Origin: Escherichia phage JM10
Sequence record: PP400777
Strand: one strand, 5' to 3'
DNA: 64,000 nucleotides
In this document: positions 46,807-51,235 of the stretch, piece after piece
Numbering within the stretch: the first letter of the stretch is position 1
Layout: every line of letters begins with the position of its first letter
Made by a program: the position numbers and the translations under genes
The notes under the pieces: generated by a model
What the model was told of the DNA's origin: nothing
The model's database searches: none
What the model saw: the letters and a program-made list of their open reading frames with translations, nothing else

Positions 46807-47466
46807 TTAACCTCGATTCATAAATGCATTAAATATTTGGTCATCAACAGAAATTTCTAATTCGACTTCAATTGCTTCAGCCTTTTCTTCAAGTGGTAAT
46901 TCGTATCCACACACTACAATTTTTTCATCGATATCAAAATATACAGAAGCAATACGATTAATGTTATTTTCAGTTAAGTCTAAATCAACATCAACATCTT
47001 TTTGACCTACACTTAAAGGATAACTAATACGGGTTATTTTATTATCTTTAACAAAGAGACCACCAACATACTCTGTACTACGTTTGAAGTTTACACGTTT
47101 CCGAAATGAAAGATATGAGGCATCTTTACCATGAGCCCTGCTCATAGGACATAATGAATAGCTAGAATAAGAGATGTCAAATCCTACACCTTCAATATGA
47201 GCCAACGCGCCATGATTAAACCAATTATAATCATATGCCAAATCCATTATATTGTAATATGTGAAAGGCACAGGATTAACATCATATGTTGTACCTTTAA
47301 AATCTGCCCAGGCAACGATTTCGTTATCTTTAACAATTACAAAAATTACACCAATATGGTATCCGTTATTATTTTCATTCGGCGTTATATTATAACATTG
47401 CGCATTAGGAAATTTACCATATTTAAATGGCGCATTTTTGTGCATATAATAAATCATATTATTCAC
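46807..47466 (-). CDS. Hypothetical protein (219 aa)
   Basis: ORF in the 61-41 cluster. Confidence 0.5.
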   Translation of the reverse strand: MNNMIYYMHKNAPFKYGKFPNAQCYNITPNENNNGYHIGVIFVIVKDNEIVAWADFKGTTYDVNPVPFTYYNIMDLAYDYNWFNHGALAHIEGVGFDISYSSYSLCPMSRAHGKDASYLSFRKRVNFKRSTEYVGGLFVKDNKITRISYPLSVGQKDVDVDLDLTENNINRIASVYFDIDEKIVVCGYELPLEEKAEAIEVELEISVDDQIFNAFMNRG

Positions 47467-47752
47467 CTGTGATTTCGGTTACGATATCTTTGTTATCGAA
47501 ATTAGGGTCACAATACAAAACATAGTTGTACTGCATGATACCGCCAGACTTAAGTTGTTCAACAACTTTATTAACCATATTAGGACGGTCTCGTTTAGTG
47601 ATGTTCATGATATCAGAGAAGATTTGTTGTTCAACATCTTCTTGATTTGCAGTCATTGACCACTCACAGAGGTCTTTATCATAACCTGCCGTAACTGGAG
47701 CCGGTGCACATGATACTGCAAGTAAGATTGCTGCCAATGATAACTTTTTCAT
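47459..47752 (-). CDS. sp: Spackle periplasmic protein (superinfection exclusion, lysozyme inhibitor)
   Basis: Signal peptide MKKLSLAAILLAVSCAPAPVTA then GYDKDLCEWSMTANQEDVEQQ...QLKSGGIMQYNYVLYCD; 97 aa. Confidence 0.8.
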   Translation of the reverse strand: MKKLSLAAILLAVSCAPAPVTAGYDKDLCEWSMTANQEDVEQQIFSDIMNITKRDRPNMVNKVVEQLKSGGIMQYNYVLYCDPNFDNKDIVTEITGE

Positions 47753-47811
47753 TTTAACTCCTTAGTTGATTTGATAGGACTACTATACTATAGTCCATCT
47801 ATAATGTAAAC
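47753..47811 (-). promoter_or_regulatory. Early promoter upstream of sp
   Basis: Minus GTTTAC - 18 nt - TATAGT, inverted repeat GGACUA/UAGUCC flanking the -10, AAGGAG SD. Confidence 0.55.
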
Positions 47812-47815
47812 AAGT

Positions 47816-48064
47816 TTATTCTTTTTCGCGAATAATAATTACTTGTTGAGGCTGCTGAGCAGATTTCTTTTCGGCAACGATAGACCAAATTAAAGTTCCA
47901 ATCCAACCAATCATCGTCCAGTTAAAGAGTAAAGATACAAAGAAGATTGCTGTTGTGCTTTTTGTGCCACGAATAAGTGCGATTACCCAAGGCAACATGT
48001 AAATGATGATTGAACCAATACCTGCGATTAAAACTGCTACTGAACTAGCTACGAATAATTCCAT
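47816..48064 (-). CDS. Small inner-membrane protein (82 aa), possible superinfection-immunity-type protein
   Basis: Two hydrophobic helices (LIAGIGSIIIYMLPWVIALI; IFFVSLLFNWTMIGWIGTLIWSIV); adjacent to sp. Confidence 0.5.
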   Translation of the reverse strand: MELFVASSVAVLIAGIGSIIIYMLPWVIALIRGTKSTTAIFFVSLLFNWTMIGWIGTLIWSIVAEKKSAQQPQQVIIIREKE

Positions 48065-48125
48065 GTTAATTTCCTCTTGATTTGTTATGTTTATAGTATC
48101 TTATTTTAACTTTGGTGTAAACCAA

Positions 48126-48494
48126 TTAATTAAATTTGTTTAAACGTTCAATACACTGGACGTAGTTATTCGCGATTTGTTTCTGGGTAGGCTCTTTACC
48201 AGTTGTTTCAACATAGCGAATGAATGCGATTTCAGTAGCCTGTAAGCAATGTTCTTTAACGCGTTGTTCTTTTGACAATGCTACAGTATCAGAGTCACGA
48301 TAACGTTGAGCATGGGCATCAGCTTGAATCATTCGATTACCTACAGTAACCGGGTCTTCCACTTCAACTTTAGGTTGTTCATATTGTTTAACATTCGGAT
48401 TGTAAATCAGTTGGCCAACGTTATTAGGAATAAAGCCATGGGCACCACATCCGGTTAATCCGAACACCATTGCTAAAGCGATTAATTTTTTCAT
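48126..48494 (-). CDS. Putative lipoprotein (122 aa)
   Basis: Signal peptide with lipobox MKKLIALAMVFGLTGC. Confidence 0.55.
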   Translation of the reverse strand: MKKLIALAMVFGLTGCGAHGFIPNNVGQLIYNPNVKQYEQPKVEVEDPVTVGNRMIQADAHAQRYRDSDTVALSKEQRVKEHCLQATEIAFIRYVETTGKEPTQKQIANNYVQCIERLNKFN

Positions 48495-48554: not shown

Positions 48555-48767
48555 CTATTTTAAACTTTTGCGAAATTTGCGTTTTTCTTGACGAATCTGT
48601 CGTTTAGTAGGACGTACAGCAAATTTAACGAAGTCTACTTTGCCGTGTGGAAACTTTTCAGATGCTTCACAGTCCATCATTAGTTCCCATCCTTCCAGAA
48701 TAAGAGCTTTCCATTGTGTAGTTGATGCAAATTCATATGTTGATGGTTTAAACACAGTTGAATACAT
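48555..48767 (-). CDS. Hypothetical basic small protein
   Basis: Listed ORF trimmed to the ATG just after the dmd stop; K/R-rich C-terminus. Confidence 0.4.
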   Translation of the reverse strand: MYSTVFKPSTYEFASTTQWKALILEGWELMMDCEASEKFPHGKVDFVKFAVRPTKRQIRQEKRKFRKSLK

Positions 48768-48768
48768 A

Positions 48769-48960
48769 TTATCCTCTGAAATCAGCTTCAAAAACTTTCT
48801 CGTCATTAATAAATGCTTTAACTAATGTTTTGTTCACTTCAGCAAGTTGTACCGTAACCCACTCGATTTCTTCGCGATCACCTGATAACATCATATCTTT
48901 AGTGAACATCTCACCGCTTTTAAACCAACCGATAAAAGTAACTTTAGTTAATTTGCTCAT
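48769..48960 (-). CDS. dmd: Dmd antitoxin (inhibitor of host RnlA/LsoA RNase toxins)
   Basis: MSKLTKVTFIGWFKSGEMFTKDMMLSGDREEIEWVTVQLAEVNKTLVKAFINDEKVFEADFRG; 63 aa. Confidence 0.75.
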   Translation of the reverse strand: MSKLTKVTFIGWFKSGEMFTKDMMLSGDREEIEWVTVQLAEVNKTLVKAFINDEKVFEADFRG

Positions 48961-49274
48961 ATTTCCTCACAGAATGCCCATTCAGCATGATAAACTGTAG
49001 CACCTTTAGTATCATTCATTTGAACTACATCTACCGGAGAAATTACTCGATAGAGACGTGGTTCACCTCCATAAGAGCGTGCTGCTCGTCCTGCATAAAT
49101 CTTTGCTAAACCGATATCTTCAGTAAAGAATACACGATCCAAGTTTTTCTTACGTCCAGTTTCAGACAGAACTCCTGTTTCTTCAGGAGGACAAAGCATG
49201 TTTTCGATGTTAGCTGAACTACTTGAGCCGTGATAAAAAATCTTAAATTCTGCTTTACAATCGATGGTTTTCAT
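48957..49274 (-). CDS. Hypothetical protein (105 aa)
   Basis: ORF with ATGA overlap to dmd; preceded by a promoter/hairpin cassette. Confidence 0.5.
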   Translation of the reverse strand: MKTIDCKAEFKIFYHGSSSSANIENMLCPPEETGVLSETGRKKNLDRVFFTEDIGLAKIYAGRAARSYGGEPRLYRVISPVDVVQMNDTKGATVYHAEWAFCEEI

Positions 49275-49329
49275 TTTGTTCTCCAGTAGTTGATAGGTCT
49301 ATAATAACACAACTACTGGAGAAGTAAAC
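49275..49329 (-). promoter_or_regulatory. Early promoter with 12-bp anti-SD inverted repeat
   Basis: Minus GTTTAC-UUCUCCAGUAGUUGUGU-TATTAT-AGACCUAUCAACUACUGGAGAACAAA-ATG; arm CUCCAGUAGUUG in the spacer pairs with CAACUACUGGAG carrying the SD. Confidence 0.65.
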
Positions 49330-49704
49330 TTAAAAACGTAATTTAGATATATCTGCGTTGATTTCGTTTTGGTTTGCGTCGTATGCAATTAAACGAACCG
49401 CTTTAGATGGGTCATTCAATGCATAGAAATGATGGAACATTGCTCGAACGATATCACCATTTACGAGTTCTACCTGGATAGGAGAACCTTTTTCGAGTTG
49501 GAAATGTTCATAAGCTTTGATGGTTCGTAGATAATCAAGTTTTTGATTTCCGGCTCCAACAATTTGTACGATACGTTTGCCAATGTTTTCCATACGAGAT
49601 ACAATAGTTTTAGGAGCAAGAATAACGTAGGTTGCCAGCGGAGAAACTACTTCAACAGTTGTGTTTTCGGTGATTGCAGTAAAAATTGCTTGAGACATAT
49701 TCAT
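49330..49704 (-). CDS. Hypothetical protein (124 aa)
   Basis: ORF downstream of gene 41 with its own promoter cassette. Confidence 0.5.
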   Translation of the reverse strand: MNMSQAIFTAITENTTVEVVSPLATYVILAPKTIVSRMENIGKRIVQIVGAGNQKLDYLRTIKAYEHFQLEKGSPIQVELVNGDIVRAMFHHFYALNDPSKAVRLIAYDANQNEINADISKLRF

Positions 49705-49763
49705 AATGTTTTCCTCTTGGTTGGTGTAAGTACATCATATCATGCCTAGAGGAAGATGTAAAC
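49705..49763 (-). promoter_or_regulatory. Early promoter with anti-SD element
   Basis: Minus GTTTAC-AUCUUCCUCUAGGCAUGA-TATGAT ... CCAAGAGGAAAACAUU-ATG; UUCCUCU complementary to the SD AGAGGAA. Confidence 0.6.
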
Positions 49764-49787
49764 CCCGAAAGGAGACCGAAGTCTCCT
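49764..49787 (-). terminator. Terminator-like hairpin after gene 41
   Basis: GGAGAC-UUCG-GUCUCC hairpin 6 nt after the gene 41 stop; U-run is weak on the minus strand (UUUCGGGG) and strong on the plus strand (UUUUUAUU). Confidence 0.55.
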
Positions 49788-49792
49788 TTTTA

Positions 49793-51235
49793 TTAAAATT
49801 TTAGCTCATTGGCTAAGCTATCTAGGTCAGCCCGTGTTGCTTTGGCTTTACCTACGCGTTCCGTACGATTCACCTCTGCCTGACGCATCTGAGCACCTGC
49901 GTTTTCATTTACTGTGTTAGGTGTGTTCATGCCTTCTTGCTCAATCTCAATCCATTTCTGGTTGCCTTTACGTACACCCATCAGGAATTTATTCCACTTA
50001 TTCTTATCACCGTATCGTGATTTGATTTGTTTGATAAGTTGTTGTTCAGCTTGTGCAAGTTCTTCGGTTTCAATTACAGCCAACATGAAATCTGCCGTTG
50101 CTGGTAAACCTGCTGATTCTGCGATATCACTCATGTTCATGTCTGAAGCATCCCATGCTGCACGTCCTACTTGAGCTGCGGTCCATAGAACTGTTTCAGA
50201 TTCTACTGCTAATGCACGAAGTTCTTCTGCGATAGCTTTAACTAAGGTGTAGCTATTTTCAGTGTAAACTCTGATACGACAAGACCCACAAATACCTAAG
50301 TAATCAACCATGATTACAGATGGCACAAAGTTCTTCTTAAGTTTTAACTCATTAAGCAATGCACGAAATGTATTAGCGTTAGCTCCACCAGTAGGATACT
50401 GTTTAACTACTAAACGTCCTAATGTGGATTTTGAACGCCATTTTTCCATCTTGGCTTTATATTCAGCATAAGATACGTTACCATCATCGATATCATCGAG
50501 TGATACGTCAAGCATGTTTGCATCTATACGCTTAGCACAAACTTCTTCAGCCATTTCCATGGAAATATAAAGAACATTATGACCTGTTTGAAGATAATCT
50601 GCAGCAAGTGAACAAAGGCCTAAAGATTTACCAACGTTAACACCGGCCATTAAAACATTTAGTGTACCTGTTTCAGCACCACCTTTAGTGATTTTATTCA
50701 AAATGTTTAATTTGAACGGGACCTTACGTGCTTTATTTAGATAAGAAAGCCAGCGTGCTTCATAGTCTTCCATCCAGTCATGTCCAACATAACTATCGAA
50801 CGAAATTGAAAGTGCTTGACGCATAATATCAGGAATAGCTCCTACGTCAGGCATTTTCTTGTTACGTTGTTCTGGAGGTAGTTCAGCATTAGACTGAATC
50901 TCAATGATTTTGGACGTAGCATTATACATCGCTTTTTGCTGGACATATTTCTCAGTTTCTTTAACCAACCATTCGTGGTCTTCAGGAGTATCAGCCAATT
51001 TTTCAATTAGGTCTGAAGTTCCTTTATATTCGGCTTCAGTTAAAGAACTGTTATCTAAAGCCACCTTTAACGCATTGATAGATGGCATTGCATTATATTC
51101 GTTAACGTGGCTCTTTATAATTTTAAAGACATTTTTTGCCGGTCCACGCTCAAAGTAATCAGAATCCATATAAGGCCAGACCTTAGAAAAATAAGCCTGA
51201 TCATATACGAGATGAGACAAAATAATTTCTACCAC
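49793..51235 (-). CDS. 41: Replicative DNA helicase gp41 (DnaB-like)
   Basis: 480-aa ORF; RecA-fold hexameric helicase motifs (GVNVGKS Walker A); T4 position between 61 cluster and uvsX. Confidence 0.92.
   Translation of the reverse strand: MVEIILSHLVYDQAYFSKVWPYMDSDYFERGPAKNVFKIIKSHVNEYNAMPSINALKVALDNSSLTEAEYKGTSDLIEKLADTPEDHEWLVKETEKYVQQKAMYNATSKIIEIQSNAELPPEQRNKKMPDVGAIPDIMRQALSISFDSYVGHDWMEDYEARWLSYLNKARKVPFKLNILNKITKGGAETGTLNVLMAGVNVGKSLGLCSLAADYLQTGHNVLYISMEMAEEVCAKRIDANMLDVSLDDIDDGNVSYAEYKAKMEKWRSKSTLGRLVVKQYPTGGANANTFRALLNELKLKKNFVPSVIMVDYLGICGSCRIRVYTENSYTLVKAIAEELRALAVESETVLWTAAQVGRAAWDASDMNMSDIAESAGLPATADFMLAVIETEELAQAEQQLIKQIKSRYGDKNKWNKFLMGVRKGNQKWIEIEQEGMNTPNTVNENAGAQMRQAEVNRTERVGKAKATRADLDSLANELKF

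Follow-up and report, generated by a model that had tools for sequence, protein, structure and literature searches.

Does a small gene that overlaps the phage antitoxin gene dmd act together with it? In a 64,000-nucleotide stretch of DNA from Escherichia phage JM10 (record PP400777; the whole stretch is referred to here as the window), a dmd homolog on the minus strand is preceded by an open reading frame (ORF) of 105 amino acids (aa), whose stop codon overlaps the dmd start codon. The original prediction, made from the sequence alone, had raised the possibility that the two genes form a two-component unit directed against host defenses. As described below, the 105-aa protein has the fold of an ADP-ribosyltransferase (ART), and in T4-like phages neither gene requires the other. 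We consider it probable, although well short of certain, that dmd, the ART gene, and the following gene tifA form one immediate-early unit in which the ART is an independent early effector, with the adjacency of ART and Dmd being a product of lineage-specific gene shuffling.

The identity of the downstream gene was borne out. The 63-aa product of dmd (48769-48960, minus strand) matched Pfam family PF17587 with 75.2 bits, against a curated cut-off of 27 (E=5.1e-21), with residues 4-63 aligned over profile positions 3-60 of 60, and it matched PHROG 2102 with E=8e-33; the annotation of phage RB69 names it likewise. It is 57% identical to T4 Dmd. The gene also occupies the position typical of the family, i.e., after gene 41 and directly before tifA (also termed 61.4), a placement that is the same as in RB69 and, except for inserted genes, the same as in T4 and RB3. 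Judged by its sequence, the window protein is a secure homolog of the T4 inhibitor of the RnlA and LsoA toxins.

The upstream ORF (48957-49274, minus strand; 105 aa), a homolog of RB69ORF040c that matches PHROG 2110 with E=3e-60, was also found as predicted, with its TGA overlapping the dmd ATG to form an ATGA junction (…GAG GAA ATA TGA / ATG AGC…). The junction had been taken to indicate translational coupling. The overlap is real, but dmd need not rely on coupling for its translation, because it carries its own Shine-Dalgarno motif, GAGG (48968-48965, minus strand), which can be read in the sequence 4 nt 5' of the ATG, within the last codons of the ART gene (…C-E-E-I). Such junctions are also routine here: among the 17 same-strand junctions annotated for this segment in RB69, 7 overlap or are 1 nt apart, and in 13 other phage loci the ART gene shows a 4-nt overlap with downstream genes that are unrelated to dmd. 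For these reasons, we rejected the overlap as a sign of functional partnership.

What is the 105-aa protein? It had been described as being of unknown function, but its fold could be assigned. An AlphaFold2 model (mean predicted local distance difference test score, pLDDT, 84.5) has the split β-sheet of the ADP-ribosyltransferase superfamily, closest to the folds of Tpt1/KptA, the rifampin transferase Arr, and AcrIF11. Searches of the PDB with the single sequence, or with a profile of the close family, gave nothing meaningful; with a profile of the wider family, which included distant relatives, Arr structures were the top PDB matches (E=1.9e-4). In BFVD, a library of viral structures, a phage protein labeled "rifampin ADP-ribosyl transferase" was matched at E=3e-7 with 37% identity, and some depositors already label close homologs "ADP-ribosyl transferase." The His residue that binds NAD+ on strand 1 of this fold, within the motif H-G-[ST], is present: H15 and G16 do not vary in either the 40 close or the 46 distant homologs, and position 17 is Ser or Thr. 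In the alignment of the 40 close homologs (A1), 25 columns are invariant and mean column identity is 69%; the invariant residues include H15-G16, E38, G40-R41, K43-N44, F49, T51, D53, Y60, R63, G69-G70, and E103. The protein thus appears, from its sequence and its predicted structure, to be a minimal ART-fold domain that stands alone and is allied to Arr.

It is also widespread. Of 609 phage records in which tblastn found the ART, 215 were from Escherichia phages, 116 from Klebsiella, 68 from Acinetobacter, 62 from Aeromonas, 29 from Enterobacter, and 14 from Vibrio phages, the remainder having other hosts; identities were mostly 60%-80% and exceeded 60% even between Aeromonas and Acinetobacter phages. 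In many T4-like lineages it is the ancestral first gene after gene 41, with its own promoter throughout.

The adjacency of ART and Dmd is a re-observation, in that it has already been published and the gene pair is annotated in RB69. Iyer et al. (2022) described a "p0068-family" ART paired with Dmd in Escherichia, Shigella, and Salmonella phages and predicted that the pair is a type II toxin-antitoxin system (PMC9503650, section 3.7.1); the same paper notes that Dmd adjoins a different, Mod-like ART in some Klebsiella phages. From the fit of the description, the p0068 family is very probably the RB69ORF040c family, although Iyer et al. placed it in the H-Y-[EDQ] clade, whereas the sequence links found here lead to Arr. 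According to their proposal, the ART would be the toxin, and Dmd the cognate antitoxin that binds and neutralizes it. The genes are indeed adjacent and overlapping, Dmd is a proven antitoxin mimic, and a hairpin upstream of the ART gene (see below) appears to restrict its expression tightly, which might suit a toxic enzyme.

However, an obligate pair should occur together and vary together, and the two genes did neither. We examined 62 IMG/VR loci encoding the ART and sought Dmd within 3 kb of it. Dmd lay directly 3' of the ART in 10 of them, in all of which the ART was about 86% or more identical to the window protein; the other 52 had no Dmd within that distance. Nor had Dmd been replaced by another conserved small gene, a possibility that we rejected because the downstream genes were of at least five unrelated kinds; these included genes for a Cys-rich protein of 46 aa, a small membrane protein, and a protein with a signal peptide, along with unrelated genes. 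The genus distributions differ as well. The 798 phage records containing Dmd were nearly all from phages of Escherichia, Shigella, Yersinia, and Salmonella; Klebsiella, Acinetobacter, and Aeromonas were not among the ten leading names, and the six names beyond those ten accounted for 8 records in total. At least about 250 ART-bearing genomes would therefore be without a detectable Dmd. Conversely, in T4 and RB3 gene 41 is followed directly by dmd, with no ART between them.

A further case was a pair of closely related phages. The ARTs of VR25 and VR26 are identical at 96 of 96 positions, and in VR25 dmd adjoins the gene; however, no Dmd was found in the VR26 genome (NC_028957.1; 171,541 bp) by tblastn with five Dmd alleles and a Dmd-like paralog (best E=0.16). 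This makes VR26 a natural dmd "knock-out" of possible experimental use. VR25 and VR26 are sister Gapriverviruses, and the gene downstream of the ART in VR26 encodes a 188-aa signal-peptide protein. Co-variation was also lacking. Loci L005 and L006 encode ARTs that are 100% identical beside Dmd alleles that are only 60% identical, while between the VR25-type Dmd and that of RB3, a phage without an ART between gene 41 and dmd, identity is 83%. Since each gene can do without the other and the two show no co-evolution, an obligate toxin-antitoxin pair is contradicted and the suggested two-component unit is unsupported. Moreover, the role of Dmd against RnlA and LsoA is sufficient to explain its presence on its own. 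We therefore regard the toxin-antitoxin interpretation as very improbable.

Two other small proteins were noted in the course of this survey. In VR20- and VR25-type phages, a second protein of about 110 aa is encoded directly after dmd (L011:3532-3873 and L015:3498-3830). Its C-terminal half resembles Dmd (…HWY..KTAD..NA.VEAFV…K.D.RKG), and from this resemblance it is perhaps a paralog of Dmd with specificity for a different toxin. In addition, an acidic, Cys-rich ORF of 39-46 aa (MEEFECVVCGCSVCED…ATCLDCD…EE) recurs in several lineages after the ART gene or dmd (L005-L010, L012, L017-L019, and L002) but is absent from the window; its sequence suggests that it is probably a zinc ribbon.

A looser form of partnership would be one in which the two proteins cooperate against RNase toxins of the RnlA/LsoA type, e.g., with the ART modifying a toxin and Dmd binding it. 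The setting is suggestive, since the genes would share a promoter, are tightly packed, and lie in an island of genes that neutralize toxins (dmd, tifA, and adfA); in addition, T4 Alt is reported, in a passage of a recent preprint that cites earlier work, to ADP-ribosylate and interfere with MazEF (10.1101/2025.11.20.689424). Against this, each gene is common without the other, and T4 Dmd suffices alone against RnlA, being conditionally essential on rnlA+ hosts only (10.1101/2025.11.20.689424). The conservation of the ART at more than 60% identity from Aeromonas to Acinetobacter phages also suggests a target far more conserved than RnlA or LsoA. Cooperation of this kind is, in our judgement, highly unlikely.

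How might the ART be expressed? Scanning for consensus elements revealed a predicted early promoter of the σ70/T4-early type upstream of the gene (49328-49301, minus strand), with TTTACT (preceded by G, giving GTTTAC), a 16-nt spacer, and TGn-TATTAT, i.e., 9 of 12 consensus matches plus an extended -10 TG. It starts 1 nt past the stop codon of the preceding gene, an ORF041c homolog, and a GTTTAC…TAnnAT promoter occurs at the same spot before the ART gene in many T4-like lineages. The same region contains a 14-bp inverted repeat (49323-49279, minus strand). Its 5' arm (49323-49310) lies in the promoter spacer and its 3' arm (49292-49279) covers the ART Shine-Dalgarno motif, GGAG (49284-49281). 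The -10 hexamer ends at 49301, and the predicted transcription start, at about 49294, falls between the arms. The RNA folds with -25 kcal/mol (z=-5.3) and none of 200 dinucleotide shuffles was as stable, so that the hairpin is beyond chance; a second test gave z=-4.4. In Dhakavirus, Kanagawavirus, and other loci, a shorter anti-Shine-Dalgarno pairing, of TCTCC in the spacer with GGAGA at the ribosome-binding site, is kept before the ART gene. We rejected the inverted repeat as a terminator because it has no T-run and was not called in our scan, which found no terminator-like site between the ORF041c homolog and the ART gene.

Hairpins that occlude a ribosome-binding site and contain an internal promoter are familiar from the T4 genes e, soc, 49, and I-TevI, where one arm lies 5' of the proximal start and the other on the Shine-Dalgarno motif, so that promoter-proximal transcripts alone are translatable. 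The same arrangement was found here, with the 3' arm on the Shine-Dalgarno motif and the 5' arm upstream of the predicted start. One difference is that the classical T4 hairpins have late or middle promoters inside early read-through transcripts, whereas here the internal promoter is itself of the early type. The original prediction had proposed that the ORF has its own promoter, gated by a hairpin. Both elements are there, but not in that relationship: because the promoter sits inside the hairpin, the structure can form only on read-through transcripts, and transcripts from the ART promoter itself, not having the 5' arm, would have a free ribosome-binding site. From this layout, the hairpin would make translation depend on the promoter, rather than gate the promoter. 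The early promoter of the ORF041c homolog resembles that of the ART gene in layout, in that its spacer, CTTCCTCT, is complementary to its own Shine-Dalgarno motif, AGAGGAA; however, the predicted minimum-energy fold does not pair them.

What, then, might the ART modify? The closest family by sequence is Arr (PF12120; PDB 2HW2, 9IAF, and 9IBA), but the profile alignment reaches only Arr residues 13-82 of 143, leaving the C-terminal part of Arr without a counterpart. In addition, Arr Tyr49 on strand 2 is a Phe in the window protein, and the invariant SE-GRKKN loop of the latter is missing from Arr. For these reasons, the window protein is not a strict Arr. Consistent with this, it had no match to PF12120 at E≤1, and only 3 of the 40 close homologs matched it, and those weakly (best E=0.026). 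Nothing suggests that a rifamycin is its substrate.

Nevertheless, Arr modifies a small molecule, rifampin, and it could be argued that the phage protein is not a macromolecular transferase at all but a "sponge" for NAD+ or ADP-ribose derivatives, an NADase, or a modifier of some small molecule, for instance an immune signal or a compound resembling an antibiotic. At 105 aa it offers no obvious module for recognizing a target, the canonical catalytic triad is only partly kept in the wider family, and "diffusible compounds" have been raised as possible targets of phage Arr-family ARTs (PMC9503650). We think this quite improbable. The resemblance to Arr stops near residue 82, the invariant H15-G16-[ST] and the E103 that is invariant in the 40 close homologs fit a working active site, and the context of polyvalent proteins favors modification of macromolecules (PMC9503650).

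That context emerged from a profile search of 1.84 billion representative sequences, which yielded 220 relatives of the ART, with 151 domain matches being analyzed. Of these, 62 were in larger proteins (more than 150 aa, with a maximum of 3,924 aa), where the partner domains included ART-PolyVal, NUDIX, GNAT, Toprim, phage portal plus 2H/Acb1-like, LPD23, and CHAP. In three such proteins (P0149, P0132, and P0127), the homologous segment was matched by the Pfam family Arr-ms itself, with 29.4, 27.5, and 26.9 bits against a gathering score of 25. The effectors carried by these "polyvalent" phage and plasmid proteins are thought to enter the cell together with the DNA (PMC5512222, PMC9503650). 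In P0165 (954 aa), the fusion partners of the ART domain are a lambda-type portal protein and a 2H/Acb1-like phosphoesterase, and in P0161 (1955 aa) they are ART-PolyVal and NUDIX domains; these architectures hint at NAD+/ADP-ribose or RNA-end chemistry that is delivered with the virion.

Chemistry on RNA is an attractive alternative. The ART might transfer ADP-ribose onto RNA phosphate ends, in the manner of Tpt1/KptA, or onto a site in a tRNA or mRNA, and would thereby either repair or shield RNA from host RNase toxins or disable host RNA. The Tpt1-like fold, the basic invariant loop, the 2H and NUDIX fusions, and neighboring genes that counter RNases all point in this direction. If this were true, the ART, as a pared-down Tpt1/Arr-like enzyme, would tag or cap RNA within the first minutes of infection, protecting phage transcripts or inactivating a host RNA, and would be an enzymatic third arm of the anti-toxin island, beside the stoichiometric inhibitors Dmd and TifA. 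However, the similarity to Tpt1 is limited to its NAD+ lobe: the window ART aligns with 75 residues of the 179-aa Tpt1, with 21% identity, and has neither an N-terminal RNA-binding lobe nor any extra domain. With that lobe missing the protein is not a Tpt1, and the Arg-His-Arg-Arg tetrad reportedly used by Tpt1 cannot be mapped onto it. The sequence affinity to Arr, a modifier of a small molecule, also argues against an RNA target, while the heterogeneity of the fusion partners is typical of polyvalent proteins in general. On balance, we consider this possibility unlikely.

Other known phage ARTs were compared as well. AcrIF11, an anti-CRISPR ART of phages and plasmids (PDB 6KYF), has no detectable sequence relationship to the window protein, and its target, being described as CRISPR-specific (PMC12421852), would be implausible as a universal target for phages of many hosts. 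The ARTs of T-even phages, i.e., Alt, ModA, and ModB of T4, reprogram the host from the start of infection (PMC10468400). They share no sequence-level homology with the window protein and are encoded at separate loci; in VR26, alt, modA, and modB are all present in addition to the ART described here. These T4 enzymes belong to the R-S-E clade and range from 200 to 680 aa.

Several observations weigh against our view of the ART as an independent, enzymatically active early effector. Those concerning the protein are as follows. The most conserved loop (S-E-x-G-R-K-K-N) was modeled with low confidence, and the classical Tyr on strand 2 is replaced by F49. The C-terminal Glu on the last strand, E103, is kept in the T4-like clade and in a "WAFxEP" subclade but not in the wider family; the catalytic residues are therefore insecure, and the protein might bind rather than catalyze. 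The window ART had no match above thresholds in Pfam (E≤1), NCBIfam, or PADLOC. Literature searches on ORF040c, the RB69 ART, Arr-like phage ARTs, and anti-defense found no biochemical or genetic study of it: the name ORF040c led only to unrelated ORFs, in a 2006 genome paper, and the gene is not among the contents of the HIDEN-SEQ preprint, which covers T4, Bas37, and Bas54 (10.1101/2025.11.20.689424). The use of the promoter and the transcription start at about 49294 are consensus predictions. With regard to independence, tblastn may miss highly divergent homologs of a protein of about 60 aa such as Dmd, and in coliphages whose ART is about 86% or more identical to the window protein Dmd does follow it in most loci, so that a lineage-specific functional link between the two in coliphages is possible.

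The explanation that we favor is as follows. The ART gene, dmd, and tifA would be transcribed as one immediate-early unit within the anti-toxin island, in the variable region between genes 41 and 61. The Arr/Tpt1-like ART, whose strand 1 carries H-G-S, strand 2 the aromatic F49, and last strand E103, would use NAD+ to modify a conserved host target, which may be protein or RNA, in the first minutes of infection, acting as a takeover or counter-defense effector on something that is conserved across the Gammaproteobacteria. Its expression would be limited to transcripts from its own promoter, while transcripts reading through from gene 41 or the ORF041c homolog could bury its ribosome-binding site in the hairpin. 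Dmd and TifA would share the ART promoter but act independently of the ART.

The wider locus is of the RB69 type. The 1.4 kb around dmd shares 98.5% identity with RB69 and with some 120 further records, and the gene order in the window is that of the RB69 annotation, i.e., of a Mosigvirus-type T-even phage. On the minus strand, the order of transcription is gene 41, the ORF041c homolog, the ORF040c homolog (ART), dmd, tifA/61.4, and then imm.1, imm, and sp. The helicase gene, 41, is at 49793-51235 (minus strand), and a terminator-like hairpin of gene 41, AAAGGAGACTTCGGTCTCCTTT, lies upstream of the ORF041c homolog (in the region 49330-49792). The ORF041c homolog (49330-49704, minus strand; 124 aa) matches PHROG 10668 with E=1e-85 but no Pfam family, and it is specific to Mosigvirus, being present only in loci L001, L003, and L004.

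Downstream of dmd, the tifA homolog (48555-48767, minus strand; 70 aa) was identified by matches to Pfam DUF7279 (E=5e-20) and PHROG 2375 and corresponds to RB69 gp61.4. The mechanical ORF call is 83 aa (48555-48806), from an ATG within dmd; however, the profile matches and the RB69 annotation indicate that the true start is Met14 at 48767, 1 nt past the dmd stop. The genes imm.1, imm (superinfection immunity), and sp (spackle) follow at 47459-48494 (minus strand), each behind its own early promoter of the GTTTAC type. In VR26, imm instead adjoins gene 43, which is an example of the way in which small early genes move freely in and out of the gene 41-61 region. T4 has a comparable dmd-tifA (61.5-61.4) early operon (PMC9391042): homologs of these two genes come after gene 41 in matching order and are preceded by an early promoter, with adfA (61.2) located farther downstream. 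The difference is that in T4 and RB3 the promoter is directly 5' of dmd, whereas in the window the ORF041c homolog and the ART gene intervene after gene 41, and the ART promoter would serve dmd.

What does this mean for the T4-like phages? The gene 41-61 region has been called an "anti-TA island" by Srikant et al. (2022), directed against toxin-antitoxin systems, in which Dmd blocks RnlA and LsoA, TifA blocks ToxN, and AdfA blocks DarT; the TifA of RB69 is itself a published inhibitor of the ToxN toxin (PMC9391042). These three proteins have made the region a model for the way in which phages disarm toxin-antitoxin defenses. Because the locus is annotated in RB69, the adjacency of the two genes has been published, and some depositors already label close homologs of the ART as ADP-ribosyl transferase, the pairing itself counts as already known. 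However, going by the distribution of the two genes, the toxin-antitoxin prediction in the literature appears to be mistaken as a generalization, and should be treated with caution. Since the ART is not tied to Dmd, experiments should shift from RnlA and LsoA to a broadly conserved host target. The gene is among the most conserved small accessory genes of T4-like phages, and its product looks like one of the smallest ADP-ribosyltransferases known.

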